64,000 nt of DNA from Microcoleaceae cyanobacterium (GCA_051652765.1 JBOFUV010000034.1:156080-220079); one strand, 5' to 3'; counted from the stretch's first letter, positions 17,547-34,651 are shown. Notes: generated from the letters alone by a model not told the origin. Translations and numbers: made by a program.

Positions 17547-20063
17547 CTAACGATCCAGACAATACTCTAAACTTACGAGCGCATAGGGAAAGGCATAAGA
17601 AAACCAGCGAGTCCACACATATTCTGCCTCATCACTATTAATAAATGCATCCACCATTCTGCGCCATCCTGGATCACCTGCAGGTAAAATTAGCCCATAA
17701 AAATCACAGGTCAATGGATCTTCTGGGACTAAAGTATAGTTCTCAATCGGCAACTTCTGCCTAAACAGCTCACCGATGGTTAAAACACCATCATTTGCAA
17801 AAGTATCAATTTCATTATTAACGACAGCATCTACCCCCGCAGTAATTGCATTTCCGCCTCGAAAATAAACCTTTGTAGTTTCCGGATATTTTTGGCGCAG
17901 AAATTCCTCCGTTGGTGTATTTCTAATCACTCCAGTGGTCACCCCTGATAAATCTCCATTGGGATTGATCCGAGTTTCATTAATAATTTTAGTGAGAAAT
18001 TGTGCTCCAGTAATGAAAAATGGTTGTGAAAAAGCAACACCTGAAATATTTCGCTGAATCGGGTTGGGGCCACACTCGAGTTGAACGGTTCTACTTCTGA
18101 CGAGTGGATAGCGAGTATCAACTGTTGAGGGGAAAATCACCAATTCAATTTCAACTGGAACATTAAGTTTCTGGGTTAAATAATCTCGAAAAGAATCAAT
18201 TAATTCCGTGCAGTAGCCTTGAAGCTGTTGTTCCTGATCCAAATACCCAAATGGTACAGCATCTCGCCGAATTGCAACTTTTAAAACCCCTGTTTTCTGA
18301 ATCTCATCTAGTACACTTTGTTGAGGAACTTGAGGAATAGTGACAACAGAGCTTGGGAGTGTAATGGGAAGAGGAGAAGGTTTTCCGTAGGCGGCTTCCA
18401 ATTGTTCAAGGGTTAAAGAACGGATCAAACTGACTTCTAGACCGGGCTGGCTGAGAGATTGATTGTAAGAAGCAGAGAGATAGGGCAAATAATTTTTATC
18501 TCCCCGAAGATAGGCGTTAAAAAAGGCCACGCTCAACCCAAAGAAATAGGGACGACCTAAATCGTAATTATCCCCAATAATCACTTTGGGTACTGACTCA
18601 ATCCCTTCGGTATCTGACTGAATGCTTGCAGTAAAGTGAGTGCCGGGATGTAACAGTGAAAAATACTTTTCGGGGACTTTCAATTCAATAAATGCATTGA
18701 CTTGTTCTTGAATCATTGGAGTGACAATATCTTGACTCCCTGCAACAATCAGAGTAGGAATTTGAACCTGACTCATTCCTTCTGCACCAAAGATAGCACT
18801 GGTTAAAGGATGGGCAGCGATCGCCACTTTAATTCGAGGATCGCGTAAATCGTAATCGATTTGGGGCAAGTAGACAGCTCGACATTGCAAAAGCAGGGAA
18901 ACATTTAACGTAAAATTATCAGGGCGGCAGATTTGAGCGAGCTGTTCTGGAATGATTTTTGCTCCTGCTAATGTTAGTGCTGTGGTCGCGCCAAAAGAGT
19001 TTCCGACTACACCAATTTGGTCTAAATTGATGCGATTCATTAATTCTGGATCAGTCTTAGCCAATTGTTCTAGCCGATCAATAAATCGGGAAATATCTAA
19101 AGGACGGCTCACATATTCAATCGGGCTTAATAATGAGTCTACGTTTCCCCGCAAGAAAGATTGACGATAGCCTAAATTGCTACCAATATGTTCTGGAATG
19201 GCAACTGCAAATCCATGGGATGCCAAATGTTGAGCTTGATTGTTATTTCCGCGATAGGCTCCAAACCCATGACTAGAAATTACTAATGGGGAAGGTTTGT
19301 CCAAGCCTTCGGGTAGAAAAATATCGACATCAAGCTGATAGGAACCTGTTAATCCTGTACCTGCCTGACGCAGATCTGAAATTGTAAAACTGATCGTTTG
19401 TTTAGTGAATTGATAGGGGCCTCTTTCTTGCAAACTAGGCAGTTGAGAAGAACTTATTTTAGGTTCTGTTGCCGCCTGTCGTTTAGCCTCTGCTTGGATT
19501 TCTGCTATGACGACAGTTCTATAGTCAAGTAAGGCTGGAATTTCTTGAGCGGCTTGAGCCAGTAAACGCCCATCAATCCGAATCGTTTGAGCTGGAAATT
19601 GCCGAATCACATTAATCAAGCTAAATCCTTCGGCATCAGCAGCGGCAGCCACTAAAGCAGCTCGAATTGCCTCGGAACCATTGACATCCACATCAGTTTG
19701 GATGAGCTGACCAATCCGACGCATGACCACCTTACCGATTGGCATATTAACGACGCGGCTGACGATTTCTGGAGGAAAGTCAAAGCGTTTCTGAAAGGCT
19801 TGACGTAACTGAGCTAGGGTCTGTTGATCCACAAACTGAGAGTATGCCCCAAATTCACGGGTAATCTTGCCTTGCTCAACAAAGGTTTCTAGGGCATCAA
19901 CGGACATATAAATTTCAGCAGGGGGGTAGGATAAAACAATTTTTTCTGCTCCAAAAACGGGCCTTTTATCCGATACAATACACAGAGAAATTAGACTAAC
20001 GAATAAGCTCATTGAGACTAATTTGATTTGTCTGCTTAACCCAAGCTGAGATAAGAAATTCAT
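17547..20063 (-). CDS. DUF1400 + alpha/beta hydrolase fused to a C-terminal family-3 solute-binding domain
   Basis: AEKIVLSY DUF1400 start; SHGFG, GNSFG nucleophile, GTHF; C-terminal VLDEIQKTGVLKVAIRRDAVPFGY..FSQPFFITG. Confidence 0.8.
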   Translation of the reverse strand: MNFLSQLGLSRQIKLVSMSLFVSLISLCIVSDKRPVFGAEKIVLSYPPAEIYMSVDALETFVEQGKITREFGAYSQFVDQQTLAQLRQAFQKRFDFPPEIVSRVVNMPIGKVVMRRIGQLIQTDVDVNGSEAIRAALVAAAADAEGFSLINVIRQFPAQTIRIDGRLLAQAAQEIPALLDYRTVVIAEIQAEAKRQAATEPKISSSQLPSLQERGPYQFTKQTISFTISDLRQAGTGLTGSYQLDVDIFLPEGLDKPSPLVISSHGFGAYRGNNNQAQHLASHGFAVAIPEHIGSNLGYRQSFLRGNVDSLLSPIEYVSRPLDISRFIDRLEQLAKTDPELMNRINLDQIGVVGNSFGATTALTLAGAKIIPEQLAQICRPDNFTLNVSLLLQCRAVYLPQIDYDLRDPRIKVAIAAHPLTSAIFGAEGMSQVQIPTLIVAGSQDIVTPMIQEQVNAFIELKVPEKYFSLLHPGTHFTASIQSDTEGIESVPKVIIGDNYDLGRPYFFGLSVAFFNAYLRGDKNYLPYLSASYNQSLSQPGLEVSLIRSLTLEQLEAAYGKPSPLPITLPSSVVTIPQVPQQSVLDEIQKTGVLKVAIRRDAVPFGYLDQEQQLQGYCTELIDSFRDYLTQKLNVPVEIELVIFPSTVDTRYPLVRSRTVQLECGPNPIQRNISGVAFSQPFFITGAQFLTKIINETRINPNGDLSGVTTGVIRNTPTEEFLRQKYPETTKVYFRGGNAITAGVDAVVNNEIDTFANDGVLTIGELFRQKLPIENYTLVPEDPLTCDFYGLILPAGDPGWRRMVDAFINSDEAEYVWTRWFSYAFPYALVSLEYCLDR

Positions 20064-20303
20064 AACAGGATGCCCCAGACTTAATTCTCGATTATTTGAT
20101 TGCCTGTTGAAAGATCTTCATGCCTTTCTGCATGAACTTTAACATGAAAGTTCTACTTTTCTTGACATGACTTAAAAGTCTTCTCACTGGGTCAGGATTG
20201 GATTTGTCAAGGTTTAACAATGTGTCAGACAGAGTTAAACCTTGGCAATTTAGCTTAAAAATTGATCTATGATTAGAACGACTCTGTAAGAATTCCTGTT
20301 CTT

Positions 20304-20831
20304 TTGAAACATAAGCAACCTCAATCTTTAGAAACGATTATTGGCTGGCGCGAGTGGGTTGCCTTGCCGGAGTTGGGAATCACGGCTATTAAAGCCAAAA
20401 TTGACACTGGGGCAAGGTCATCTGCCATTCATGCGTTTCATGTAGAGCCATTTTCTAGAAATAATCAGCATTGGGTGCGGTTTATGATGCACCCCATTCA
20501 ACGAGATGCCCATCATACCGTAGCAGCAGAAGCGAAGGTTGTGGATGAAAGATACGTTCGGAACTCTGGCGGACATTCTGAGTTGAGAATTGTGATTTTG
20601 ACAACAGCAGAACTCCTAGGACATCGATGGCCAATTGAATTAACGTTAACAAACCGCGATGTGATGGGCTTTCGTATGTTACTGGGGCGAGCAGCGGTGC
20701 GAAGACGGTTTTTGGTTGATTCTAGCAAGTCTTACTTGCTCAGTCATAAGCCAAATCGTCAAGGTTTAGAATCCAATGTCTTAGAATCCAATGTTGCCGA
20801 AGAATCAATTAGGATGATGAATATGAATTGA
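20304..20831 (+). CDS. RimK-associated putative ATP-dependent zinc protease / retropepsin-like protein
   Basis: IGWREWV, KAKIDTGARSS, LTNRDVMGFRMLLGR. Confidence 0.85.
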   Translation: MKHKQPQSLETIIGWREWVALPELGITAIKAKIDTGARSSAIHAFHVEPFSRNNQHWVRFMMHPIQRDAHHTVAAEAKVVDERYVRNSGGHSELRIVILTTAELLGHRWPIELTLTNRDVMGFRMLLGRAAVRRRFLVDSSKSYLLSHKPNRQGLESNVLESNVAEESIRMMNMN

Positions 20832-20950
20832 CCTCAGTTCGGGTTGGGCCGATTGAGGAAAAGCAAAATCCAGATTGAGCGCGGATCTCGTTCCGAACTT
20901 AGATCATTATTTAGTTATGATTGAACTGATTACTGCCCTGAAGGGTCGAT

Positions 20951-22993
20951 TTGTGTATGCTACGCCACCTTGTTTCCCGGGTCTTTGATGTTACGGTCTT
21001 CGGCGTTACGGTCTTTGCCCTTACTAGTTCGACCCCTGCAATCGCAGCACCAACCCCCGACCGAGAAGAAGCCTGTGACATCTTGGTACTGGGGGGTGGA
21101 TTAGCTGGAGCCGCAACAGCCTATGAAGGACTAGTGGAAGGACGAACGGTCTGCATGACCGAAATTACAGATTGGGTGGGAGGTCAGATTTCCTCCCAGG
21201 GAACCTCCGCCCTAGACGAACGCCCGACCCAGCGAGAACTTTTATTTTTTCCAAAAGGTTACTTAGAACTGCGGCAACGGCTTGAAACCTACCACGGGCG
21301 GCTGAATCCAGGGGGATGTTGGGTGAGCGCGACTTGTTTTATGCCCTACGACGGTCATCGCATTCTCTTCCAAATGTTGCAGGATGCGGAACGGCAAGGC
21401 GGTGGTACCCTAAAATGGTTCCCTGCAACTGTTGCAAAGGACGTTGAACTGGCCAATCGCCAAATTACCAGTGTTACCGCCATTCAACATAGCCCTGCCC
21501 CGGGAGCGCCTCCCCTCAATACTGAACCCTTGTCTCAGGTGATTGAAGAGGCTTATCGCTACGAAGACTCGCCCCAATTTCAGAAAACAGTTATCCGGTT
21601 CGTGCCAGCGACAAAGTTAGCCGCAAACCCCTCAGCCACCAACCCTTCGGCCCCAAGCTGGTATATTGTTGAGGCCACAGAAACCGGAGAAATCCTAGCC
21701 TTAACGGATGTTCCCTATCGGCTGGGAATCGATGCCCGAACCTCGGATGATCCGACCGCTTCCAGTGTAAACGGTGCGCCCTACTGCACCCAAGGGTTCA
21801 CCTACACCTTTGCAATGGAGGCAACAGCAAACCCTCAAACTCATACCCTGCCACCGTTTTACAAAATCTATGAGCCCTACTACAGCTACGAGTTGGAACG
21901 GCTCGCGAGTTTTCCCTTGGTGTTTACCTATCGGCAGATTTACAGTACCCGCCCCGATGAGCAACGTCCTGGTAACGTCCGAGATTGGCCGATCTACCCC
22001 GGTGACATCTCGATGCAGAACTGGACATGGGGCAATGATTACCGTCCCGGCACCCTAGAGGATAATTTGATTTTGACCCACGACCAATTGCAAGTCATGG
22101 GATACCTGGAACCTGGGAACTGGCAAGGAGGCTTGCGAGCCGATACATTGCGACGGGGAGAAGAAAATGCTATCGGTTACTTCTACTGGTTGGTCGTAGG
22201 TACAACCGATTCTCAACTGGGAGCAAACATCAAGAAACCCTATCCCAACCATCGTTACCTCACGGGACTGGATTCGCCCATGGGCACCGTTCATGGCTTG
22301 TCTAAGTTTCCCTATATGCGAGAGGCACGGCGGGTAATTGGTCGCCCCAGTTGGGGCTATCCTGAGGGGTTCACGATTAATGAAATTGACATGTCCCGCA
22401 ACGATTTCTCCCAAGATTTGTACCGCAAGACTCTTCCTCCCGATGAATACGAAGCGATGCGACTGAGATTGGCAGGACTCGAGCTTCCAGCCTTAGTGAC
22501 GGGACTGCAAACCCTGGCCCAAACTAGCCTGCGATCGCGAGCCAAGCTTTACCCAGACACCGTCGGGATTGGGCACTATGCCATCGACTTTCATCCCTGT
22601 ATGACCAAGAGTCCAGCAGAAGCTCCTGGCAATACGGAGCGAGCGGGAGAACGTTTGGGTCAAGGAGGAGCCTATCCCTTCCAAATTCCCTTGAGGTCAA
22701 TGATCCCCCAAAAAATTGACAATATGCTGGTGACGGGAAAGAGTATTGCCACCAGTCATATTGCTTCTGCGGCCTATCGTGTCCATTCCTTTGAGTGGTC
22801 ATCTGGGGTAGCGGCTGGAGCGACAGCAACGTTCGCTTTGGAACAGGGCATTGCCCCCTATGAATTGGTAGATGACTTACCCTCTCGAGAACTCCAGTTG
22901 GAAACCTTACAACAACAGTTGCAGGAAAGCGGCAACCCGATTGCCTTTCCCGGTAGCTCAATTTTCAATCGTTCTTGGCAAAACTGGAAGTAA
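20951..22993 (+). CDS. Secreted FAD-dependent oxidoreductase
   Basis: Signal-like N-terminus; GGGLAG; ITDWVGGQISSQG; PYMREARR; PFQIPLRSMIP; AYRVHSFEW. Confidence 0.85.
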   Translation: MCMLRHLVSRVFDVTVFGVTVFALTSSTPAIAAPTPDREEACDILVLGGGLAGAATAYEGLVEGRTVCMTEITDWVGGQISSQGTSALDERPTQRELLFFPKGYLELRQRLETYHGRLNPGGCWVSATCFMPYDGHRILFQMLQDAERQGGGTLKWFPATVAKDVELANRQITSVTAIQHSPAPGAPPLNTEPLSQVIEEAYRYEDSPQFQKTVIRFVPATKLAANPSATNPSAPSWYIVEATETGEILALTDVPYRLGIDARTSDDPTASSVNGAPYCTQGFTYTFAMEATANPQTHTLPPFYKIYEPYYSYELERLASFPLVFTYRQIYSTRPDEQRPGNVRDWPIYPGDISMQNWTWGNDYRPGTLEDNLILTHDQLQVMGYLEPGNWQGGLRADTLRRGEENAIGYFYWLVVGTTDSQLGANIKKPYPNHRYLTGLDSPMGTVHGLSKFPYMREARRVIGRPSWGYPEGFTINEIDMSRNDFSQDLYRKTLPPDEYEAMRLRLAGLELPALVTGLQTLAQTSLRSRAKLYPDTVGIGHYAIDFHPCMTKSPAEAPGNTERAGERLGQGGAYPFQIPLRSMIPQKIDNMLVTGKSIATSHIASAAYRVHSFEWSSGVAAGATATFALEQGIAPYELVDDLPSRELQLETLQQQLQESGNPIAFPGSSIFNRSWQNWK

Positions 22994-23062
22994 GTGTACT
23001 TAATCAGTGCACTTAAAATGATTGCCCTGCAAGTGCAAGACAGAAATTACTCAGGGAAGTTG

Positions 23063-23458
23063 TTATTCGTCGTCTTCCCGAGAAGACGTTTGATCCTTCC
23101 GAATGACCCACTCAAACATTGTTGCTGGGCGAGTTTGCTTGGGCGGATCAGCCTTGGATGGGGAAAGCTTAACTTCATGATCCACTCGAATAATTTGATC
23201 TCGAATAGACGCAACCCCAGAGGAACTGGGTGGGGCCAGAGGTTGATCGATGCTCCACCAGATTGCCAGGTAATATCCAGAAATACTTGCAATTAGACCC
23301 AATATAATGCTCAGTCCCAAAGGATACTGAACTAAAAAGAATCCGACTGTAAACAGAATACCAAGCAGTAGAGCAGCAGCAATCCCATCTGAACTGTTAG
23401 AATTGCTGGCTGAGGCACTCGAGGAAGGAGCTGATTTTTCATCAGAAGAGTCAGTCAT
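23063..23458 (-). CDS. Hypothetical membrane protein
   Basis: Two TM helices; ATG start; fills gap. Confidence 0.65.
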   Translation of the reverse strand: MTDSSDEKSAPSSSASASNSNSSDGIAAALLLGILFTVGFFLVQYPLGLSIILGLIASISGYYLAIWWSIDQPLAPPSSSGVASIRDQIIRVDHEVKLSPSKADPPKQTRPATMFEWVIRKDQTSSREDDE

Positions 23459-23663
23459 GGGTCGTTACGTTAAGGCAATGTACTTTAGCAACACATTAGA
23501 TTTAGGGCAAACAACGTGAAAGTCACTTGACCTGCTTGTCTTGTTGGCACGGACAGAAAGTTGATCCCAACCTGTATTGTTTCATTTTTAGATTGGCATC
23601 ATCCCTGTTTTCAGTGTAACCTTTCCATGACGCTTCCAAGCGCTAATCCGCTTTAGAGTGCAT

Positions 23664-23704
23664 GTTAGACTGAAAATTTAAACCTAATAACTAGTTATGC
23701 CGCC
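23664..23704 (+). mobile_element. attI-like/attG recombination site (left junction of the cassette)
   Basis: L box ACCTAAT (23682-88), 5-bp spacer AACTA, R core GTTATGC (23694); extra GTTAGAC (GTTRRRY) 30 bp upstream. Confidence 0.6.
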
Positions 23705-23816
23705 TTAAGGTATTGTGGGGCGTGGTTGAAAGCTTGCCTGTGGGTTGCGGGAAGCTCTTGCTTAGAACACATCTGAAAGTTATCTATAAGCTGCGTAGTT
23801 GCAGAGATGCTCAAGT

Positions 23817-24203
23817 TTAATGGTCGATGTGCAGTTTTGTTGGCTCTGCATCATACAGTCCTGGAATAACCAGCCATAACCACATCCGACATTTGAATAA
23901 ACGTAAAGACAAGAGTTCTTCTGGGAAATTTTGCTGACCGTGCCCTTGCCAATGTCCAAGATTAGCGAGTTGCTGTTTGCTACAAGGCGGACACAGATCC
24001 CCAGGATTGCCTTTGTCAGGGCTGTAGTTGGGGTCGCTTTCGTTGAGAGGGATAGGCTCAGGCAACCGCCCATGGTTCGAGTAGGGACAGGGGTTGCCGT
24101 TCAATTCTGCCGAGATCATCCCGGAGCAGATCAGAGTATCGGGGTAGATTTTGCCATCAGGTGAGAGAAAAAGGGCTTTTGGGGAAGTATTAACACCGCT
24201 CAT
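23817..24203 (-). CDS. Cys-rich hypothetical protein
   Basis: Motifs LICSG, PCPY, LCPPC, FKC; last gene of the island; alternative start 24251. Confidence 0.7.
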   Translation of the reverse strand: MSGVNTSPKALFLSPDGKIYPDTLICSGMISAELNGNPCPYSNHGRLPEPIPLNESDPNYSPDKGNPGDLCPPCSKQQLANLGHWQGHGQQNFPEELLSLRLFKCRMWLWLVIPGLYDAEPTKLHIDH

Positions 24204-24293
24204 TGAGAATACCGATAAGAGATTTTGCGTCAGGAGTACGCCTGATCGCATATTAGTATTTTGAACGCTTAGCGGACATTAGTCAATAAAGGA

Positions 24294-24788
24294 TTATCGC
24301 TTTTCTGAAGGTGGCACTTGGAAGTCAGATTGTTTAGCGATGAGTTCTAGGAATTTTGTGGTGGAGCGATCGGGGTCATAAGCGCCGTTTTCCCATTCGC
24401 TGACAGTTTGCCGACGAACCCCTAATTCCTGGGCAAATTGAGCTTGGGTTAAACCCATATGTTTGCGAAGGGCTTGGATCGCGTCCTGTTTCCAGATGAT
24501 TGCGCCGTCTTTTTGCTGGATGTTGTACTGTGTCTGAAATTTCTGAAAGGTAACGGTCTGCTGGGTTAGATCAACGGACTCGACGTGATAGCCTGCGCCA
24601 ATCCAAGCTCCGGCTTGTAGGGCGCTGGAACTATCTCGATTGCTCCACCAGTTTTTCTTGTTCAATGCTGAGGTGGGCAGCGAGCAACCCATCAATGCTT
24701 CAATTTCGGCAAAGGTCAGCATAACTGCCTCCTGATTGCAGCGTTGCAAGTGCTCAAAAATTGGGTAATACTTGCTTCCAGGTTTCAT
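24294..24788 (-). CDS. XRE-family HTH protein with additional N-terminal domain
   Basis: N-terminal SKY.P...LTFAEIE....LP.SA...WWSN domain; C-terminal LRKHMGLTQAQFAQELGVRRQTVSEWENG. Confidence 0.85.
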   Translation of the reverse strand: MKPGSKYYPIFEHLQRCNQEAVMLTFAEIEALMGCSLPTSALNKKNWWSNRDSSSALQAGAWIGAGYHVESVDLTQQTVTFQKFQTQYNIQQKDGAIIWKQDAIQALRKHMGLTQAQFAQELGVRRQTVSEWENGAYDPDRSTTKFLELIAKQSDFQVPPSEKR

Positions 24789-25276
24789 GCTGTCTCGCCA
24801 ACTGCCTGCAAGACCTCTGCATAAAGCCGCGCATCAATCCAGAAACCAACTTGCTCAATTAAGACATCAAGTAGCGGTTTTACCTCTTGAATCAGGTTGT
24901 TTCGTTTGGCGGCAATCAGGATACCTAAGACACCTGTGACTTGTAGCCCTACTCGCATTGCAGCCGCTCTACCCAGTCGTTCGTCCATGAGGAGGCGATC
25001 GGCGTTTAACTCGATAGCCAGGGCGATCGCCTCAGCTTCTCCGGGATCGAGTTCGGCTCTTAACGTGTTGACAAATGCTCGATCGGTCGCGGATTGCGTT
25101 TTCACCCAGCTTAAGGTTGGTACAACCCTGGCACTGGCATCGGTATTGCCAACATTAGTGATTTCGTTGAAAACCTTTGTTGGAATCACAATTTCGTCGT
25201 AAAGTTGGCGGAGCAAATCGAGCTGACCAATGGTGGACAGGTAAAAGATAGGCGACGTATTACTGACCACAATCAT
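24785..25276 (-). CDS. DUF3368 PIN-domain protein (COG2405-like putative toxin)
   Basis: IVVSNTSPI, LDPGEAEAIALA, LMDERLGR, VTGVLGIL; ATGA overlap with upstream gene. Confidence 0.88.
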   Translation of the reverse strand: MIVVSNTSPIFYLSTIGQLDLLRQLYDEIVIPTKVFNEITNVGNTDASARVVPTLSWVKTQSATDRAFVNTLRAELDPGEAEAIALAIELNADRLLMDERLGRAAAMRVGLQVTGVLGILIAAKRNNLIQEVKPLLDVLIEQVGFWIDARLYAEVLQAVGETA

Positions 25277-25518
25277 CGCCAATCGTTTGCCTCCAGGGTT
25301 CTTAGGTCTTGCCGGAAGTCTTCAACGCCATAATGGATGGGGATTTTACGACTACCTAAAATGCGCTGAAACTCCAGCTGATTCATCCCTGCAAACTGGC
25401 TAGCAGTGCCCAGAGTAATCTTTTCCTGCTGAAATAGCAGAATGGCAATTTCGAGCTTGAGATCGGCTTCAGTGATATGTGCCGTTTGCAGAAACTCATC
25501 GGGAATGATTAGACTCAT
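25273..25518 (-). CDS. UPF0175-family protein (COG2886-like putative antitoxin)
   Basis: LFQQEKITLGTASQFAGM..FQRILGSRKIP.HY....DL; RBS AGGAG. Confidence 0.88.
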   Translation of the reverse strand: MSLIIPDEFLQTAHITEADLKLEIAILLFQQEKITLGTASQFAGMNQLEFQRILGSRKIPIHYGVEDFRQDLRTLEANDWR

Positions 25519-25533
25519 GGTTCAAAATCTCCT

Positions 25534-25896
25534 TTAAGTTTGTGGTTCATCAGGCAAGGGGGGAAGTATTGACTCTAGCTGAACCAGAAGAGGATCTAAC
25601 TCTGAGTGGATAATTGTCCACAGAATATCTTGCCTGACTTCATCGTAGCGATGGGCAACAATGTTGCGTAACCCGACAATGCGTTGCCAGTCGATATCTG
25701 GATGGGCCTGTCGAAATGCATCGGTGATCCGGCGGGCAGCTTCGCCCAGAATTTCAAATTGTCGCTCAACGGCACTGATGGTGCGAATATCGTTGAGATA
25801 TTCGTCAAAGTTTAGATCACTGGTAAACGCTTGAATCCGTTGAATAGACTGCACCATATCCCATACTGAGGCAACATCACGGTTGTTTGATTGCAT
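25534..25896 (-). CDS. HEPN (DUF86/HepT-like) ribonuclease toxin
   Basis: EILGEAA, IDW, RNIVAHRY (RX4HXY motif). Confidence 0.9.
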   Translation of the reverse strand: MQSNNRDVASVWDMVQSIQRIQAFTSDLNFDEYLNDIRTISAVERQFEILGEAARRITDAFRQAHPDIDWQRIVGLRNIVAHRYDEVRQDILWTIIHSELDPLLVQLESILPPLPDEPQT

Positions 25897-26209
25897 AGAT
25901 AACCTGACAAGTATTCAAGATTTCATATCGTCTGTAGGGGTTTTTTAGATATTCCTTACTCACTAGGTCAACTTTACGGTTAAATAATGCCTCAATCGCT
26001 GCTTGCATGTTTGTCCAATCATCCCAGGTTAAACGGTGATCAGGCGAAAAAGTGACGAGAATATCAATATCGCTATCGAGGCGAAAGTCGTCGCGCAGGA
26101 CGGAGCCGAATAGGGCAAATTCAATGATGTGCCAGCGTTGGCAAAACTCTGCAATCTGAGCGGGAGAGGCTTTAATTCTGTCACCCACCAAACTGGTTAA
26201 CTCAACCAT
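25877..26209 (-). CDS. Minimal nucleotidyltransferase (MNT/MntA-like antitoxin)
   Basis: FGSVLRDDFRLDSDIDILV (GSX10DXD), RKVDLV. Confidence 0.9.
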   Translation of the reverse strand: MVELTSLVGDRIKASPAQIAEFCQRWHIIEFALFGSVLRDDFRLDSDIDILVTFSPDHRLTWDDWTNMQAAIEALFNRKVDLVSKEYLKNPYRRYEILNTCQVIYAIKQP

Positions 26210-27641
26210 CACCAACCTCCTCACCTAAAATCATCCGCTCTACTCGCGCTTTTGCGGTGGCAACGACGGCTTCGGCTTGCGATCGCAACTGCTTCGCCTC
26301 AGAGCGTCGCTGCTGTACCTTCAACGCAATTTCATCCTGTATTGCCTTCGGTGGAGTAGCTATTTTCAGAGCAGAGATATCATCTGGATAAATTTCAGTT
26401 TGCCCTGTAGCTCCACGATAACGTTGCCAGAATTGAGCCTGCCCAAGTGAAGAATTGAGAAACTCGGCAAGAAAATGTGGATTATGTTCGGGTTTAAGGC
26501 GAACTATGGAGACGTGACCATCAACAACACAATCAAATTCTTCTTCAAAGACACTCGCACGTCCCCAAGAACCATCACCTGTTGAAGTAATAAGAATGTC
26601 ACCTTTATATACTTTCGATTTTTTCCCAGATGTTGTTTCAAGAAAACTGGGATCAACTCTGAGAGCACTCCCAAAATTAATGTAACCTGATCCGACATTA
26701 ACAGTCTTTAGGACAGGTATAGCTCCATCTGAATTATATTTGGGTTGACTTCCCCGCTTAGGTTTTTCTCGGCATAGACTACCTAAATTTAATACAGGAT
26801 ATTTACCTTCTTTAGTAGCATTGATAACTGTAACGTAGCGTCTGTCATAGATCTTAAAATCCCATCTGTCCTCTAAATCTGAAACTTTCATTACAAATCT
26901 AGGCTCATCTTGAATTTTCCCAACTATCACTTCTAAGATTTTTTTTATTTCATCATCAATACCTTTGACTAAACCTTTAGCTTCCTCTAATTTTTTCTGC
27001 CGATCGCCATAAGCCTCCTGCATCACCTGGGCAATCTGGTCTTGGAGCGATCGGGGAGGAACTGATATTAGAATATGACCAACTTCCTTTAAGTTCATTT
27101 CAGGTCGTGTTGTTCGATGCGACAACCGAATAACCTGAAATTCACCAAATTGAGAGTTGAGAAATGCTGCAACATAATGAGGATTAACATCCTCTGGCAA
27201 CTCAATTCCTGCAATATGTCCTGTAATGCTACCTTCTTCTAAAAAATCTGGAAAGACAGCAGCAGTTCCTACTCGTCCAGCAATGGTGATCAAAACATTG
27301 CCGGGAACTACTCGGCTTCGATGCAGTTCTTGGTGCTTCTCTTCAGAAATATATTTAATGTCACTTGAATCAATACCTGTAGGCAAGACATCTTTAACCC
27401 GAATATAGGGAATCCCGCTATCCTGATACATGTCAACTTTGCGATTGCTCCCAAAGGGTCCGTCGAATAAACGAGAAGCAACCTTCTTTAGGGGTTTCAA
27501 AGGATATGGAGCATTATGCAAAGCATCAAGTCGTTCTTGATATTCTGGCAGATAAAATTCAACAAAAATCTTTGACGTAGTTAGCTGACTACGTTTGACT
27601 AGAAAATGGGTGCGATCGCTTTGACTTGTATTTACAGCCAT
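26202..27641 (-). CDS. Restriction-modification specificity subunit (HsdS-like, two TRDs)
   Basis: Two TRD-like halves (GIPYIRVKD..GNVLITIAGRVG; IPVLKTVNV..GDILITSTG), each followed by PP...Q..IA coiled coil. Confidence 0.88.
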   Translation of the reverse strand: MAVNTSQSDRTHFLVKRSQLTTSKIFVEFYLPEYQERLDALHNAPYPLKPLKKVASRLFDGPFGSNRKVDMYQDSGIPYIRVKDVLPTGIDSSDIKYISEEKHQELHRSRVVPGNVLITIAGRVGTAAVFPDFLEEGSITGHIAGIELPEDVNPHYVAAFLNSQFGEFQVIRLSHRTTRPEMNLKEVGHILISVPPRSLQDQIAQVMQEAYGDRQKKLEEAKGLVKGIDDEIKKILEVIVGKIQDEPRFVMKVSDLEDRWDFKIYDRRYVTVINATKEGKYPVLNLGSLCREKPKRGSQPKYNSDGAIPVLKTVNVGSGYINFGSALRVDPSFLETTSGKKSKVYKGDILITSTGDGSWGRASVFEEEFDCVVDGHVSIVRLKPEHNPHFLAEFLNSSLGQAQFWQRYRGATGQTEIYPDDISALKIATPPKAIQDEIALKVQQRRSEAKQLRSQAEAVVATAKARVERMILGEEVGDG

Positions 27642-29668
27642 CCCAGTAACTCGTTAAATTTCATAATTGTCCAAGAAATATCAGGAGGGCAGTGTGATTC
27701 GTCTTCCGAAACATTTAATCGCCCGGTTGCGTCATACCCAATGCTGTCTATTCTTGCCATATAAACGTCATAGTCCTCGTCCTCAACAGCATCCTGACCA
27801 ATTTCAAGCTGTTCTGGCGATAACCGAATTTCTCGCTTTTGTAACACAAGGATGCTGGTTTTCACACCTGCTCCGTACGGTGCGAATGTCTCTTGAGGCA
27901 AACTAAGAACAGCTTTCAGTTTTGCCCAGCGAAAGATCCAATCTCGAACATCCTGAGTTTGGCTATTAGCTAAAACTCCATCCGGTAAAACAATAGCGAG
28001 CTTGCCACCAGGTTTTAAGAATTCAAGGCAACGGTTCATAAAAACAATTTCTTGAGGCATTGTTTTGGCTGTCTTGCCATTCTTCCTTGTCACCCCATCT
28101 CTGCCTGCAAGATCTTTTAAGATGCCTTCGCTCGTTACCTTTGAGCCAAACGGCGGATTCGTCAAAATCATCGTCAACCCACCCGGATAAAATCCTGGTC
28201 GATCCGGCAACCCCTCCATAATGCCGCCCGTGATACTGCCCAACGGTTGCAGTGCATCGATCACCTTCAAGTCGGCATACTGCGCCCCATTCATCAGGCA
28301 ATTTACCCGCGCCACATGCATCACATTGCGGGAAATCTCCGCCCCAAACAGCCGATTTTCGCGGAACTCTAAAAACTCCTGTGTCGGTTCATCCGGGTTT
28401 GTCACCTCTACCCCTGCCGCTTCTGCCTGCTCCAGTTCTTGCTTTCGCACATAGTCCAGCACATGGGTCAACATCCGTGCCGAACCACACGCCGGATCAC
28501 CAACAAAATCATGCACCGTCGGCTGCAAAATCCCCACCATCAGATTAATCACCGGAGTTGGCGTGAAATATTGCCCCAGGTCATCCCGAAAGGTTTTGCC
28601 CAGGAAATCCTCAAACACGCCCCCCTTCACATCCGCCGTAGACTTCCGCAAACTCCAGGGCTGCAAGCGTCTGACAATTTCAACGGTCGTATGGGGCTTA
28701 AACTCCAATGCATCCGATTCTGTAAACGCCAGCCGAATACCCAGATGATCGCCAAACTTTTCGCTGAGGGTGTCCCGCTCCCACTGTTTCGCCTTTTCAA
28801 ACGTATCCCGCACCTGCACCATCAAACGCTCTGGGTCAGTTTCCCCTTGCTTATAGCTGAACACATAGGATCGCATCTCCCCCGTAGCCTTCACCAAGTC
28901 GATCGTTGCCTGCTCGTCATACCACTTGGCAAACAAAAACTTGACCATGGCATCCACCGCTTCCTGGGGTTGCAATCCCTCATTATCCCGCAGGAGCGAG
29001 TGACAGCCCGATCGCGTATCCCCCAACACTTCCCGAAACTTGTCACGGGTCAAGGGTTGCAATCCCGTCTGAATGCCATCCGGCTCACTGGGATTGAGGA
29101 TCACCTTAAACGGGCTATGCTCCGCCGCCGATCGCGCACTCTCGTACTTCGGCAAATCCCCAATTTCCTGAAGCGCACGGGGATATTCCAAATCACGGCG
29201 ATAAATTTTGGTATGCGTGCCACTGGTCAGGATGGCATACCGAGCCGAGGGTGACGCACTCATGTAAGCATTGAGTCGATTCAAGTGTTCAATCCAGCCT
29301 TCCGGCTCCGTTCCCTCAAACTTCTTTCCTGGCTCCATTGCCTCCACCATAATGAAGGCAACATCCAACCCACCCCCTGCCCCGATATAGCGGTCATCAT
29401 AAACAATGACATCTACAAACCCTAAATACCGTCTTCCCCCCTGATGCGTCCCTTCAGAAAAATCGGCATCGTGCTCCAATCTCATAGCATCCAGTGGGAC
29501 ACCGTATTCTTTGTGCAGGAGGGCGATCGCCCAAATGGTTACTGGATCTTCTACTGGACGAACGTATGTATCATCTTTGAATAACTTGGACAGATTTGAG
29601 TGCTTCCGATAGTCCTCTGAAACAGTGGTTGGGTTTTGGTAGGGGTTGGTGAAGTTGGTAAACGACAT
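27632..29668 (-). CDS. N6-adenine DNA methyltransferase with N-terminal HsdR_N-like domain (type IIB/IIG-like R-M subunit)
   Basis: GQYFTP, DPACGS (motif I), ILTNPPFG (motif IV), LKPGGKLAIVLPDG; N-terminal YG.P..VDVIVY..VE..Y..LTSG pattern. Confidence 0.88.
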   Translation of the reverse strand: MSFTNFTNPYQNPTTVSEDYRKHSNLSKLFKDDTYVRPVEDPVTIWAIALLHKEYGVPLDAMRLEHDADFSEGTHQGGRRYLGFVDVIVYDDRYIGAGGGLDVAFIMVEAMEPGKKFEGTEPEGWIEHLNRLNAYMSASPSARYAILTSGTHTKIYRRDLEYPRALQEIGDLPKYESARSAAEHSPFKVILNPSEPDGIQTGLQPLTRDKFREVLGDTRSGCHSLLRDNEGLQPQEAVDAMVKFLFAKWYDEQATIDLVKATGEMRSYVFSYKQGETDPERLMVQVRDTFEKAKQWERDTLSEKFGDHLGIRLAFTESDALEFKPHTTVEIVRRLQPWSLRKSTADVKGGVFEDFLGKTFRDDLGQYFTPTPVINLMVGILQPTVHDFVGDPACGSARMLTHVLDYVRKQELEQAEAAGVEVTNPDEPTQEFLEFRENRLFGAEISRNVMHVARVNCLMNGAQYADLKVIDALQPLGSITGGIMEGLPDRPGFYPGGLTMILTNPPFGSKVTSEGILKDLAGRDGVTRKNGKTAKTMPQEIVFMNRCLEFLKPGGKLAIVLPDGVLANSQTQDVRDWIFRWAKLKAVLSLPQETFAPYGAGVKTSILVLQKREIRLSPEQLEIGQDAVEDEDYDVYMARIDSIGYDATGRLNVSEDESHCPPDISWTIMKFNELLGWL

Positions 29669-29798
29669 TCAGTTGGCAAAAGTTAGAGATCAGTACACTT
29701 TACTCTCTATGATGCCTGAAGGTAGTTGAGTTGTCTTGCTTTAGAATTATTCATAGGTGTTGGGTCAGATCCAACTTGTTGGTCAGCCAAGCACGGCG

Positions 29799-29903
29799 GC
29801 ATAACAAGTCGTTGCAACGGGATTTTGAGAGCGGATTGGCAAATTCTGGTTGAGTCTCAAAGTTGTTGCCGCTCTCAAAATCCGCTGAACTTGGTCGTTA
29901 TTG
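29799..29903 (+). mobile_element. Integron attC site (105 bp)
   Basis: R'' GCATAAC, 5-nt spacer, L'' GTTGCAAC, 15-bp perfect IR GGATTTTGAGAGCGG/CCGCTCTCAAAATCC, L' GCTGAAC, 6-nt spacer, R' GTTATTG. Confidence 0.85.
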
Positions 29904-30041
29904 GTCAGCAAGGGGAAACGAACATTCGGGCGCTCAGCTCGATGTTGCATTCTACTGCTCTCTTCAGGGATTGAACAGTAATTAGTCATAATGAGAATTG
30001 CTGTGAATGCTCAGACATACTTCACCCTAACACTGACTAGA

Positions 30042-30599
30042 ATGCCCTCCCCTATAGGACATACCCTGGCTGGCCTGTGTGGCTTCATTTTGGTGCAGCC
30101 CACTATGTCTAGATCACAAAGAGTTCCCTTGTTGATCCTGACTACGGTCATTGCCAATCTTCCAGATATTGATATTCTTCTTGGATTAATTCTGGCTGGA
30201 GATCCATTTATCTATCATCGCCAGGGAACCCACAGTTTGATTGCAGCTCTATTGGTGGGGGGTCTAGTCGCTGGTCTCACCCAGGTTTTCAACCTCAAGT
30301 GGCCTAGGGTTGGAGTCTGGGTAACGGGGCTCTACCTGAGTCATTTGTTTCTGGATATGTTAGTCAGTGACCAATACCCACCCGCTGGTGTGCAAGGGTT
30401 TTGGCCTTTGTCTCAGTCCTATTTGATTTTTCCAATCACCCTGTTTGGGGGACTACAATTCAGCGAGGGCGGAAGGGGATTACTGGGAGCGCTGTTTAAC
30501 CCCAATAATCTACTCACCCTGATGCGGGAAATTGTAATCCTGCTACCCGTCGTTTGGCTAACTTGGCAAGGCGTTCAGCGCAGTCAACAGAGACCTTAA
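30042..30599 (+). CDS. Membrane-bound metal-dependent hydrolase (YdjM/DUF457 family)
   Basis: MPSPIGH, ANLPDID, HRQGTHSL, SHLFLD. Confidence 0.85.
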   Translation: MPSPIGHTLAGLCGFILVQPTMSRSQRVPLLILTTVIANLPDIDILLGLILAGDPFIYHRQGTHSLIAALLVGGLVAGLTQVFNLKWPRVGVWVTGLYLSHLFLDMLVSDQYPPAGVQGFWPLSQSYLIFPITLFGGLQFSEGGRGLLGALFNPNNLLTLMREIVILLPVVWLTWQGVQRSQQRP

Positions 30600-30613
30600 C
30601 TTGATGGCTTAAC

Positions 30614-31552
30614 TTAAGGTGACTTAACATGCTTGATCAAGAGTTGGGCGATCGCCTGTAACTGTCTCTTGTCAAAGGTTTTGATCAAGACTTTGACCGC
30701 TTCCTTCGGATCGGCTGGGATCGTCATCCCTGAAGGAACAGCGGCTTGACCTGCCGCCAGTTGTAATAACCGCTCACTGGGGGCAATCTCGCTGGCTCTC
30801 CCTGTTTCTAGGAGTTCACTGCCCTGCTTGAGTTCTTTGATGACTGTGTTGGCTAAATCGCTCAAGGCATTCCGAGAATTACTGATGGCCTTGTGAGCTG
30901 TTTTCACTAAATTCTGCCAGGGCTCTACACTAGGGCCAACCTTTGTTAAGCGAGCACATAACCCCGCGAGCTGTTTGCGAAGAGCTGGAGAGTCAGCAGT
31001 TTTAAACCCTTGCAACATGGGCTTCAGGACAGTCATCACTTGAGCTGCTGCTTTGGGAACCCCTGAACTGGCTGCTCTCGCTGAAGCCGTTGCTGGAGCC
31101 TGACCACTGACCAAGGTCTGAAAATGTCTTTCCAGCTTGTCAAATAGCGGTAAAGACGCAGTGACAATCTTGTCCCCCATGGCCTGAGAAAGACCTGCTG
31201 GGCTTTGACAGCGGTCAATTAAATTCTTGAGCACCTCATAGGCTTTTGTTGAGAGGGTTTGGGCGGTTGCGTCAACTTTAAACGCTGTATCCTTCACGGG
31301 CTTGAAACTATCTTCCAAACGCTTCGCGACCTTGTTTATGCTTTCCAGGCTTGGAACTTGACTCATCAACATCGCAGATCCTCCTTTGATGGAGTGAGCT
31401 GCTCGGTACATTGCGATCGCCTCTTCTCGATCTGGATTTACCATGATTGCCGGTAAATTCTTCAACCCATTCTCAAAAATCGCCAAGTGTTCCCCTGCCT
31501 CTTCCATAAAAATGGCAAAGATTTTCCGGTACTGATCTTGCTCTACAGGCAC
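30614..31552 (-). CDS. Stand-alone Hpt-domain protein
   Basis: IFMEEAGEHL..YRAAHSIKGGSAM (CheA P1-like); GTG start with GGAGG RBS. Confidence 0.82.
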   Translation of the reverse strand: MPVEQDQYRKIFAIFMEEAGEHLAIFENGLKNLPAIMVNPDREEAIAMYRAAHSIKGGSAMLMSQVPSLESINKVAKRLEDSFKPVKDTAFKVDATAQTLSTKAYEVLKNLIDRCQSPAGLSQAMGDKIVTASLPLFDKLERHFQTLVSGQAPATASARAASSGVPKAAAQVMTVLKPMLQGFKTADSPALRKQLAGLCARLTKVGPSVEPWQNLVKTAHKAISNSRNALSDLANTVIKELKQGSELLETGRASEIAPSERLLQLAAGQAAVPSGMTIPADPKEAVKVLIKTFDKRQLQAIAQLLIKHVKSP

Positions 31553-31714
31553 GGCGACCCTCCTATTCCGTCAAAATTCCAGCCGAGCAGTTTTTCTGAG
31601 TGACAGATCCCCTGAATCTGAGATTGCCAGACCTTAGCAAAACAGCAGTATAAATCCAGGATCAGGCCACTCATGATTAAAAACTTTAGCTTACTAAGGG
31701 TAGTTTTCCCAAGG

Positions 31715-33325
31715 TTAGGTCGATTCTTTCCAAATCCTTGAAGAAATTTTTATTGTATTAAGGTGAGAGTAATCTTGGCCTGATCCATACTGCCAAGCCT
31801 CTAACCAACGATGCCAATAATATTGTTGGGCTGGGGAAAGCTTTTTGGCCAGCGGTTCCAAGGGTTTGGCTAAGGGATAGAGCACACTGTAGGCGGCAAG
31901 ATTAAAATAGTGAGTTGTCCAAGTGACCAGGTTACCCAAGCCAACCTGAGGAATAATCTTTAGGATCAAAGCCGGATGAGAAATTCCGGTCTTAAACAGC
32001 GTCTTTGCCAAGGGCAGAAATTGTATCACATCCTGTAAAAATGGCTTGAGTACAGGTTCTCCCAACTGTTTCATCTCTTGAAAAACCGCTGCCAAGACTT
32101 GATTGATTTGATCGGGATCAACGGTTTGATGACTCCCTACACTCATCGATCGTTGAAATAGCCAAGTGACCGATAAACTGGGTTGATAGGGCTGCAACAG
32201 GGAGAGAGCCTTAGAATCCAGGCATTCTGCGTTCAGGGCTTCTTCAACGCCAAGAGTTAATCGTTGCAAATGCCGGATCATTGACCCAAAGCCCCCAAAG
32301 CTCAGAGGAGACTGACTGGCGCTACTATCCCCAACGGGCAAAATCCGATCCCAAGGGGTGTTTAAAGGACTGTTGCGGTAACAGGGAAAGCAACCAAACA
32401 AGGCCCGTTTGAAGGTTAATTGGTTCAGTTCAACGGTTTGATACTGGGGCAGGAGTCGGAGATACTCCTCAAACAAAAACTCCAAGCTGAACCGTTCAGG
32501 CTGAGCGTCCAGGTACGTAAATAAATAAGTCGTTCGTCCATCTCGCGCGGGAAACGCTTCCCAAAAGTATTGGCACTGAGTCTGAATCGGGGTGAAAGCG
32601 GCAAAAATATCTCCCGTTTGATTCTCCGAATATCCGGTTCCACAGGTGCCTACGACCAAACAGATTGCGTCTGGTTTTTGTCCTTGTCGGGCTTGTTGAA
32701 CGATGGGAGAGAAGTGGCCCATGGCATCTAGTAACAGGCGGGTTGTAAACGTTTGATTCTGGGCTTGATGATTCTGGGCTTGAACGGCAACTCCGTTGGG
32801 ATGAATCGTGGCCCGTTCATAGGCCATATTTTCAAATAGTTGGCCCCCAGCGTCCAGAAAGCGAGTTTTTAGCGTTTCCAACAAATCAACTGGATCAACC
32901 CCAATATTCAAGACCTCTTCTACCCAGATTTCTGTCATGTTGGGAAAGCTCAAACGGGCCGGATTGTATTCTGTGGCGATCGCCCGTTCCAATTCTGCCG
33001 ATGACAGTAGATTTAAGTCCAGGAAAACCTCCAGTTCCCGACGAGACACATTCCACTCCTGATCTCGCCCCCGCAGCACTCCCCGTTCAATCAGCCCCAC
33101 CCTCCAACCCCGTAGGGCTAAAGATGCACCGATCAGAATTCCCAGGGTGCCTCCACACACTAAAATGTCATAGTTAATCTCAGCCAATGGTTGCGAATCC
33201 TGCTGAACGGTTGTAGGAATCGGCAGGGTATTCTCCCGCAAAGCTTTCCACAGAATATCTGCCTTGCGTAATCCCGCTAAAGGATGACCCGGAATTTGAG
33301 CCAGAATTTCTTCAGTCAGAGACAT
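31715..33325 (-). CDS. cruP: CruP, CruA-type lycopene cyclase paralogue (FAD-binding)
   Basis: CGGTLG, RGRDQEWNVSR, DAMGHFSP, QYFWEAFP, QSPLSFGGFG, GSGQDY. Confidence 0.75.
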   Translation of the reverse strand: MSLTEEILAQIPGHPLAGLRKADILWKALRENTLPIPTTVQQDSQPLAEINYDILVCGGTLGILIGASLALRGWRVGLIERGVLRGRDQEWNVSRRELEVFLDLNLLSSAELERAIATEYNPARLSFPNMTEIWVEEVLNIGVDPVDLLETLKTRFLDAGGQLFENMAYERATIHPNGVAVQAQNHQAQNQTFTTRLLLDAMGHFSPIVQQARQGQKPDAICLVVGTCGTGYSENQTGDIFAAFTPIQTQCQYFWEAFPARDGRTTYLFTYLDAQPERFSLEFLFEEYLRLLPQYQTVELNQLTFKRALFGCFPCYRNSPLNTPWDRILPVGDSSASQSPLSFGGFGSMIRHLQRLTLGVEEALNAECLDSKALSLLQPYQPSLSVTWLFQRSMSVGSHQTVDPDQINQVLAAVFQEMKQLGEPVLKPFLQDVIQFLPLAKTLFKTGISHPALILKIIPQVGLGNLVTWTTHYFNLAAYSVLYPLAKPLEPLAKKLSPAQQYYWHRWLEAWQYGSGQDYSHLNTIKISSRIWKEST

Positions 33326-33439
33326 TGGGCGTTCAGGAGAAGTTTACCTTTGATAGCAATCCTCAATTAATTGTAAGAGATCTTTAGAAAGGGGTTTGGG
33401 GACGAAGCCCTCAAGAAAGAGGCTAGGATAGAACAATTA

Positions 33440-34651
33440 TCAATGTTCGGTATTGAGCTGTTGTTCTAGACGGCGAGCGGCCATGGACATCGAATAACAG
33501 AACAGCCAATAGAGGGTTCCTACGAATAAATAAACCTCGGAATACCGCCCCAGAAATTTCGGGTTCGCTAAAATTGAACCGCTGATCCCTAGCAATTCCA
33601 CTAGGCCCACAATCGCAAGCAAGGTCGTGTCCTGGAACAAACTAATAAATTGGCCCACAATCGAGGGAATCGAAATTTTTAGGGCCTGGGGCAGCACCAC
33701 TAATCCCAGAGCTAGGGGAGTTTTTAATCCCAAGGCTTTGGCTGCTTCCGTTTGTCCCCTGGGAATCGCTTGCAACCCTGCCCGCACATTTTCAGCCAGA
33801 TAGGCAGAACTAAACATTGTTAGCCCAATAATAGCCCGCAACACTCGATCGGGTCGCATTCCCTCCGGCAGGAACAGCGGCAAGAGCACCTGGCCCATAA
33901 ACAGAATCGTAATCAGCGGCAAGCCGCGCACCACTTCAATGTAAGCAATTGACAACCCACGAATCACAGGCAAACTACTCTGTCGTCCCAAGGCCAAAAC
34001 CACTCCCAACGGCAAAGATAGCAAAATGCTGATCACCGACATCAACAACGTCAGCATCAAGCCCCCCCAGAGACTCGTTTCAACCGGCTTCAGCCCCAAG
34101 CCGCCACTGATCAGCCAGACAGCCAGAATCAGGGATGTAAACCAGGCAAAGGGCAGCCAACTGACAAACTGAGGCCGCAAGTTACCCAACCACCGCCCGA
34201 CCCAGACCATAATCACTAATCCAGTTAACAGTCCTAGCAACACCCCTCGATACAAAACAGGAGTCGGAATCAGCGCCACCAGAATTGCCAATAAACTCAG
34301 GCCAAGAACTACAGTTGGGCTATACAACCTGGAAACATTTCGCGCTAACATCCCCCAGGTTAATCCGGCCAACAGAAAGATCATCCCTACAATCACCCAG
34401 AGTCGCCAGTATTGATCCGCTGGAAACCGTCCCGCAAAAAATAGAGGTAAGTTCGCTGGAATCACCCTCCACTGAGCCTCAAATCCAGCCCAAACGATGA
34501 AACCTGTTCCGATCCAGCCCAACGCTCCCCCAATAACCAGGGTCAACAGACTGTTATACCAGGTGTTGAATAGATGATTTTGGAGCCAGTTCACAGCCCC
34601 GGAAGCACCGATTGGGGGCGCAAAATTTGGAGATTGGGGAGTTGTGGCCAT
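33440..34651 (-). CDS. natH: Amino acid ABC transporter permease (N-II/Aap type)
   Basis: WGGLMLTL, RGLPLITILF, EAA loop AENVRAGLQAIPRGQTEAAKALG. Confidence 0.8.
   Translation of the reverse strand: MATTPQSPNFAPPIGASGAVNWLQNHLFNTWYNSLLTLVIGGALGWIGTGFIVWAGFEAQWRVIPANLPLFFAGRFPADQYWRLWVIVGMIFLLAGLTWGMLARNVSRLYSPTVVLGLSLLAILVALIPTPVLYRGVLLGLLTGLVIMVWVGRWLGNLRPQFVSWLPFAWFTSLILAVWLISGGLGLKPVETSLWGGLMLTLLMSVISILLSLPLGVVLALGRQSSLPVIRGLSIAYIEVVRGLPLITILFMGQVLLPLFLPEGMRPDRVLRAIIGLTMFSSAYLAENVRAGLQAIPRGQTEAAKALGLKTPLALGLVVLPQALKISIPSIVGQFISLFQDTTLLAIVGLVELLGISGSILANPKFLGRYSEVYLFVGTLYWLFCYSMSMAARRLEQQLNTEH

Follow-up and report, generated by a model that had tools for sequence, protein, structure and literature searches.

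Between positions 23695 and 29897 of a 64,000-nucleotide stretch of DNA from a Microcoleaceae cyanobacterium (GCA_051652765.1 JBOFUV010000034.1:156080-220079; the whole stretch is called the window, and positions are counted from its first letter), eight genes are bounded on the right by an attC recombination site, with no integrase gene beside them. How does a block of this size come to lie at such a place? The comparisons reported here indicate that 23695-29897 (plus strand, 6,203 bp) is a single integron cassette, and we put the probability at about 0.8 that it was inserted by an integron integrase, through attC x attI recombination, into a truncated attI site without integrase. The locus is part of a wider pattern, formed by large cassettes and dispersed integrase-less attI platforms.

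Boundaries of the cassette

The boundaries were drawn from sequence comparison and rest on two sites:

29795..29903, plus strand: attC site, 105 bp from R'' (29799) to R' (29903), with the crossover after G29897
23643..23696, plus strand: truncated attI site, with 36/37 identity to the attI on contig C22 of this genome (G000)

The initial annotation, made from the sequence alone, had described a full attC architecture at the right end, and every coordinate was reproduced. R'' lies at 29799-29805, L'' at 29811-29818, L' at 29884-90 and R' from 29897, with a perfect inverted repeat of 15 bp at 29820-34/29869-83. The bottom strand of the site has a fold with z = -4.16, and none of 200 shuffles was as good. 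Scoring by attC models, which had been proposed as a check, also detected 29799-29903 with two models built without the cassette's own site. A hidden Markov model (HMM) of 75 other attC sites of the genome had it as the single match in the 64-kb window (E 7e-8; runner-up E 2.1), and a covariance model of 34 other sites, whose structure covaries across them, gave it 31.8 bits (E 5.7e-6) in 20000-34000 with filters off. In the 34 aligned attC sites of the genome, C apparently occupies the first extrahelical position of the bottom strand, where model attC sites have a conserved G according to the literature, as far as its accessible text goes.

The cassette start (23694-23704) is the exact reverse complement of 29795-29805 (11/11), as had been claimed. 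When this start is joined to the attC, as in the model of an excised circle, the R box becomes completely paired and the fold energy, -20.1 kcal/mol in place, drops to -31.1 kcal/mol, which agrees with the proposed restoration of R''/R' pairing by circularisation. The start 11-mer has seven copies in the genome and is found at 3/111 att crossover points; a full start-R'' match occurs in 0.3% of mismatched start/end pairs versus 7/66 true intervals. Since the 11-mer is common among the cassette starts of this genome, the 11-bp match is weaker evidence than it appears.

The initial annotation had seen no internal attC, and the HMM, the covariance model and a hairpin scan likewise gave no full-length internal site. 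The scan, which was structure-free and sought RYYYAAC...GTTR hairpins in 23601-30100, returned no credible site besides the cassette attC, and the covariance model gave otherwise, over 20000-34000, five scraps of 24-47 nt with E of at least 0.45. Homologues with the same start and end occur elsewhere, one of them with a compensatory change (see below). The proposal that 23695-29897 is one cassette has thus held, and this structure appears nearly certain.

The attI site and the flanking genes

The 51 bp preceding G23694 correspond to a repeat that is dispersed over the genome in 22 copies (20 of 21 pattern hits and two HMM hits). A further pattern hit, at C82:45239, was dropped because it has no upstream repeats. 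The window copy comprises one repeat unit of ~41 bp, an imperfect palindrome (23664-23688), an L box (23682-23688), a 5-nt spacer and an R box from 23694 (G|TT). The class features of attI are therefore present, namely L box, 5-nt spacer, GTTRRRY-type R box and upstream repeats, and complete copies adjoin the 5' end of a divergent intI. The layout of attI1, in the accessible text of its description, is the same: repeats that terminate in an L box, followed by a 5-nt spacer and GTT (PMC12901181). The window copy is the most truncated of the 22; its intI stub is gone, and there is no intI trace left of 23643. By this anatomy, the cassette is very likely docked in a truncated attI. The initial annotation had correctly placed the cassette start here, but overlooked that the preceding 51 bp are an attI and not an anonymous chromosomal site.

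Two host genes flank the element and lie outside it:

23063..23458, minus strand: left flank, host gene of 131 amino acids (aa), no Pfam match
29991..30599, plus strand: right flank, host ydjM-like gene (PF04307)

In a congener (G002, contig C38) these two genes are directly adjacent, with neither attI nor cassette between them, and the region left of 23643 aligns loosely to the empty intergenic region. The comparison with an empty site, which the initial annotation had suggested, thus shows the absence of the island; at the 66-75% identity of G002 the exact 23694/29898 junction is not resolvable.

The same cassette in other cyanobacteria and metagenomes

The first gene of the operon, which encodes a restriction-modification (R-M) protein named RM here, has relatives at 57 loci, and 13 metagenome loci carry the last gene, which encodes a 128-aa protein (p128). 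The models detected an attC directly before the RM gene at loci L068, L086, L100, L102 and L122. In L086 (5,504 bp) and L100 (5,479 bp), the genes RM-S-UPF0175-PIN-HTH-p128 are flanked by one attC site on each side, and no further attC occurs within the unit. L100 differs from the window both at base 6 of the start and at the R'' partner of that base, and the pairing is kept.

The homology of the window, L086, L100, L182, L183, L190 and L066 begins at the G|TT crossover whatever precedes it, which is an attC in four loci (L086, L100, L182 and L183), an attI in L190, as in the window, and unrecognised sequence in L066. In L181 the cassette lies behind a short attI-like stretch, and in the other 9/13 metagenome loci there is no att site at this place or the contig ends too soon. 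From these contexts, the cassette has evidently moved between array positions and lineages. L183 presents the order intI, attI, cassette 1 and, as cassette 2, the homologue of the giant cassette. Its IntI is full length (321 aa), with Asp where other IntI proteins have Tyr, the catalytic residue; the IntI proteins of L018 and L016 retain this Tyr.

Relatives of the strain were found in four sediment metagenome runs (two studies), whose contigs cover 23636-30167 and not 23068-23635 or 30168-31000; several of them skip the MNT-HEPN gene pair. Among 143 other genomes of the family (two candidates scored per genome) eight match, all over this pair.

Side observations were made on the neighbouring cassettes and sites. 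The homologous cassettes L086, L100, L068, L102 and L122 have the same R'' and other attC bodies (types of ~85 bp versus the 105-bp type, window 29806-29896), which suggests attC exchange. A cassette of ~210 bp recurs about 10 times in the arrays of the genome (e.g. L124, L125, L131, L132 and L133), and 14/111 crossover points share its first seven bases. In L086 a cassette of ~200 bp stands before the big cassette and apparently after it as well, and similar ones precede the L182 copy. These recurrent cassettes of ~200 bp are possibly gene-less promoter cassettes.

Gene content of the cassette

The cassette carries eight minus-strand open reading frames, as initially annotated, here given in the order of transcription from a candidate promoter:

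29709..29737, minus strand: candidate internal promoter, -35-like hexamer 29737-29732, 17-nt spacer, -10-like hexamer 29714-29709
27632..29668, minus strand: RM protein, 678 aa, HsdR_N-like nuclease fold and N6-adenine methyltransferase; best solved relative RM.BsaXI, Type IIB (E 6e-22)
26202..27641, minus strand: S subunit with two target recognition domains (TRDs), highly variable among homologous cassettes
25877..26224, minus strand: MNT/MntA-like nucleotidyltransferase, PF01909 and PF18765, GSX10DXD present; NF047752 below cut-off
25534..25896, minus strand: HEPN/HepT-like RNase, PF01934 (E 1.6e-25), RX4H then Tyr present; NF047751 below cut-off
25273..25518, minus strand: UPF0175 protein, partner of the PIN gene, PF03683 (E 2.7e-23)
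24785..25282, minus strand: PIN/DUF3368 protein, VapC-like toxin candidate, PADLOC PDC-S70
24294..24788, minus strand: protein with DUF7662 and an XRE-type helix-turn-helix (HTH) domain, PF24698 (E 4.5e-15) and PF01381 (E 7e-12)
23817..24203, minus strand: 128-aa Cys-rich conserved hypothetical protein, last gene of the operon, five invariant Cys, without family

The start of the last gene is probably 24203 and not 24251, because most homologues start at the former position.

RM and S present a Type IIB-like architecture, as judged from domains and folds, and would methylate a bipartite site like a Type IIB enzyme, perhaps also restricting DNA. The nuclease domain of RM has an Atlas match of 0.94 to the HsdR_N-like fold, and the model (predicted local distance difference test, pLDDT, 79) has BsaXI as its best fold match (E 1e-3). 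The methyltransferase motif NPPF occurs in 26/26 sequences. Of the PD-(D/E)xK catalytic centre, the acidic positions E40, D86 and E109 are invariant in 28 aligned sequences, with Met111 where Lys is canonical and a nearly invariant Lys four residues further on; since the canonical Lys is absent, cleavage by RM is uncertain. The homologues are 23-59% identical for S versus 45-94% for RM, and many of the homologous RM genes are split or shortened. None of the eight cassette genes matched an HsdR helicase/translocase, so that this is not a Type I R-M system.

GSX10DXD and RX4H are the defining motifs of MNT and HEPN proteins. With both motifs, adjacent genes and Pfam matches over cut-off, the MNT-HEPN pair corresponds to a type VII toxin-antitoxin (TA) system, MntA-HepT. 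This pair and UPF0175-PIN both match PADLOC candidate defence models, and they are found between S and HTH in some copies only. The DUF7662-HTH protein is a probable regulator of the operon.

The 128-aa protein has 182 homologues; none of the 120 among the matches listed has a Pfam family, the Atlas matches are all below 0.9, one distant match is on a plasmid, and the fold model is unusable (pLDDT 51). The gene lies downstream of RM in 40/57 loci, usually after S and HTH, mostly in Nostoc and Chloroflexota records without attC; hence the four-gene operon (RM, S, HTH, Cys-rich) exists outside integrons. As a side observation, the protein represents a conserved family absent from Pfam that is tightly linked to the RM-S-HTH operon.

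The initial annotation had supposed that the cassette uses its own promoter, and the hexamers at 29709-29737 are a likely one. In 10/10 aligned upstream regions the -10-like hexamer keeps positions 2, 3, 5 and 6 unchanged, which supports the idea, but a consensus promoter scan placed the candidate below threshold and gave six sites versus 9.6 expected. The terminator scan gave four sites versus 6.7 expected and hence no evidence.

Is this cargo anti-phage? The term defence used initially is based on family matches, and the nuclease fold has Met in place of the canonical Lys. One can conceive of the cargo as a nuclease-dead module for methylation and addiction, a minority view that nonetheless deserves weight. 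E-A-M replaces E-x-K in 26/28 RM proteins and the other two also have no Lys, which agrees with this view as do the split or shortened RM genes, the missing HsdR translocase and the below-cut-off matches to proteins 2 and 5 of the methylation-associated defence system (MADS). The invariance of E40, D86 and E109 and the near invariance of the Lys four residues on speak for a retained nuclease, however; the divergence of S is as expected under selection for new specificities, and the two TA pairs match candidate defence models. An anti-phage function of the cassette is somewhat favoured.

Integrase genes and attI platforms in the genome

No intI stands next to the cassette, and the locus is thus not a complete integron, in accordance with the initial annotation. 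The genome-wide search that it had recommended gave 5' stubs only. The longest covers residues 1-117 and is frameshifted, and no C-terminal half of IntI was found in the assembly (5.04 Mb, 158 contigs, 99.97% complete), a draft that may miss an unassembled intI. The HMM nevertheless gave 88 attC hits on 34 contigs at E < 0.01. Across the order, IntI scored over the cut-off in 20/201 genomes sampled.

Upstream of most attI copies the sequence continues with the opening codons of a divergently oriented intI. In G002 (contig C133) the attI motif lies upstream of an intI of near full length, whose product stops at 289 aa. Twelve platforms of the genome (e.g. L123, L124, L125, L133 and L134) share an identical intI truncation, at -293/-295 from the crossover, which in both attI sequence subtypes is fused to an element of ~100 bp and a variable 22-bp tandem array. 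Each of the 12 carries a different, unrelated cassette in first place: pairwise comparison of the initial 300 bp of these cassettes gave no similarity at E 1e-10. Other platforms are eroded to -140, -230, -306, -334, -401 and -582, and the window copy to -51. The 22-bp tandem array also occurs on about 12 contigs without attI.

In G002, 10 attI loci have mappable flanks, and in no case (0/10) does an attI of the present genome lie nearer than 13 kb to the orthologous position, which shows that the platforms spread in each lineage. In contig C63 of G002 (L147), the R' of an attC (2021-1943, minus strand) runs at G|TT straight into intI sequence, at a distance of 440 bp upstream of the attI; by this junction, a cassette has used a secondary site within intI for recombination. 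GWT, the mark of ends made by IntI, was clear at the truncation point in 1/31 aligned upstream regions (that of G002:C63) and was not seen at the window attI. Most of the platform truncation points do not look IntI-made. At L138 (contig C61, attI at 9903, minus strand) there is a similar cassette start with no attC within 9.9 kb, and genes that we take to be RuBisCO-like lie ~3.9 kb downstream.

Route of insertion

We propose that a widespread four-gene operon was packaged backwards against an attC with its own promoter, and that IntI would have recombined the folded bottom strand of this attC with attI. The operon would be transcribed from its own promoter towards attI; carrying it, the cassette presumably needs no Pc and could be expressed at any array position. 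TA pairs seem to come and go between S and HTH in the absence of att sites; through addiction they probably stabilise the large cassette, and they may contribute abortive defence. The integrase most likely worked in trans, encoded by a gene that was transient or has since disappeared. If the 12 identically cut platforms descend from one truncated copy, they were loaded after the loss of intI. For the window locus itself we give loading in trans an even chance.

Several points weigh against this proposal. Only 5/57 RM loci have an attC beside the RM gene, and only two show both ends. With some attC pairs, longer cassettes (up to +3,000 bp) are excised less often (Loot et al. 2017, PMC5371416, in its accessible text). 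The Tyr to Asp change in L183 and the stop in the IntI of G002 mean that neither is a working donor, and the 158-contig draft may have left an intI unassembled. The truncation shared by the 12 platforms could reflect repeated site-specific insertion of one repeat element, or gene conversion. On the side of the cargo, the canonical nuclease Lys is absent in all 28 aligned RM proteins.

Loading may instead have taken place in cis, in a complete integron whose intI and most of whose attI were deleted afterwards, leaving the locus as a fossil. The erosion of the platforms to many different lengths fits such decay, and inactivation of intI is common, as in G002 (stop), in L183 (Tyr change) and, from the accessible text on that genus, in Xanthomonas. 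This history would nevertheless require many independent integron insertions and decays, and it sits poorly with 12 platforms that have one breakpoint but different cassettes, with the lack of any intI trace left of 23643 and with the loose alignment of that region to the empty intergenic sequence of G002. We consider it unlikely.

Similarly doubtful is the arrival of the attI remnant and the cassette as one unit, either as a delta-attI circle at a secondary GWT site or by DNA uptake and another kind of recombination. The congener without attI here and the 0/10 positions shared between the genomes are compatible with it, as are the attC joined straight into intI in G002:C63 and the short attI-like stretch before the cassette in L181; delta-attI cassettes and attG insertion have already been described, at least in the accessible texts. 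But the left boundary here and most other truncation points are without a GWT start, and an earlier attC x attI event would still be required, so that only the route to the site changes.

The idea that the block is an array of ordinary cassettes with decayed internal attC sites and a chance 11-bp match, to which the recurrence of the start 11-mer in the genome and the role of TA pairs as classic stand-alone cassettes lend some appeal, is largely refuted and very improbable, for the gene junctions overlap or span 15-42 bp, too short for an attC, no model matched internally, and a unit with the same ends and a compensatory change exists elsewhere.

Other large cassettes in the genome

The insertion of the 6.2-kb block as one cassette can be set beside the size of other cassettes. 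The 66 att-to-attC intervals <12 kb of the genome have a median of 1,036 bp; 13 are >2 kb and five >3 kb, the 6.2-kb cassette being the largest. Among the 2-3-kb intervals, some with a poor match between the ends may conceal a missed attC. In the other four intervals >3 kb the ends are matched, with no internal model hits:

L124:916-4691 (G000:C22): in the 4,746-bp cassette, Type IIG/ISP-like R-M gene and DUF2281-PIN pair
L139:1127-5119 (G000:C50): in the ~4.3-kb cassette, ATPase-TPR-CHAT protein of 1,331 aa
L125:4555-8070 (G000:C34): in the 3,796-bp cassette, LmuA/MC2/LmuB Lamassu-like trio
3,108-bp cassette: methyltransferase and unassigned 271-aa partner

The R-M gene of L124 is split by the DUF2281-PIN pair, at a domain boundary, into parts of 576 and 445 aa.

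Tentatively, and at somewhat less than even odds, these observations can be described as a distributed integron. The genus would have tens of attI platforms without integrase, which would spread to new chromosomal positions in each lineage and receive their cassettes in trans through an IntI that is transient or rare; among the cassettes available would be 3-6-kb multi-gene defence operons with their own promoters and addiction modules, which would move between distant cyanobacteria and be overlooked by standard integron annotation.

Comparison with known systems

The locus shares with integron cassettes the R''-L''-L'-R' attC, the bottom-strand hairpin, the G|TT crossover, a start complementary to R'' and insertion at attI or behind an attC. 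In the accessible text of Cury et al. (2016, PMC4889954), the largest known cassettes are of ~2 kb and IntegronFinder clusters attC sites within 4 kb; at 6.2 kb, the present cassette has about three times the usual upper size and exceeds the clustering distance. It has eight genes, all antisense, whereas cassettes are credited with 0-2 open reading frames (PMC8618304, accessible text). Defence cassettes of sedentary chromosomal and mobile integrons likewise carry R-M, TA and Lamassu-like genes (Darracq et al., 10.1101/2024.07.02.601686; Kieffer et al., 10.1101/2024.07.02.601719; both in their accessible parts). The former authors describe cassette defence systems there as streamlined, never with >2 components; here there are three two-gene modules and two further genes, and a second cassette of the genome has a three-gene Lamassu-like set.

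Single attC sites lacking an integrase (SALINs), and attG insertions, resemble the locus in the one attC and in an integrase that is not nearby, and a pipeline would probably label it a SALIN. SALINs are defined by the absence of any other att site nearby (Loot et al., 10.1101/2022.09.11.507474, accessible text), however, and the cassette sits in an attI (23643-23696). In Xanthomonas integrons with truncated intI or in attC clusters lacking integrase (CALINs), arrays outlast the loss of intI and mobilisation in trans is described as possible; these derive from essentially one ancestral locus, at least in the accessible text (10.1101/2025.06.18.660453), whereas here 22 attI platforms occur at lineage-specific positions.

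With Type IIB R-M systems such as BsaXI, which is the best match by sequence and fold, the cargo shares a fusion of nuclease fold and N6-methyltransferase and a separate S with two TRDs; it differs by the Met in place of the canonical Lys and by two extra conserved genes. MADS is an eight-gene system. RM has near-full-length similarity to MAD2 (E 4.6e-80) and S to MAD5 (E 1.7e-34), and an HTH gene is present, but the scores are far below the curated cut-offs (270 vs 720 and 120 vs 400) and the other mad genes are unmatched, so that the cassette is not a MADS.

In the literature on integrons, within its accessible text, no cassette of comparable size and no dispersed cyanobacterial attI platforms were found, although supplementary tables, outside this coverage, may list long attC-to-attC intervals. 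Published accounts, in the same text, ascribe the small size and streamlined defence of cassettes to recombination constraints. A cassette family of 5.5-6.2 kb that has fixed ends and occupies, in different cyanobacteria, several places in the array provides a natural counter-example to this view, and suggests that integrons can move whole operons, beyond single small genes. As the same operon is also known without attC, it offers a direct test of the IntI size limit and of cassette formation. It further suggests that surveys with a clustering distance of 4 kb for attC sites overlook large cassettes and call attI-docked ones isolated, which may have biased the streamlined picture.

Other features of the window

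A search of the window against Rfam gave zero matches. Short tandem repeats with a period of 12-17 bp (22 entries) are distributed from 1098 to 62724 of the window, all of them outside the cassette.

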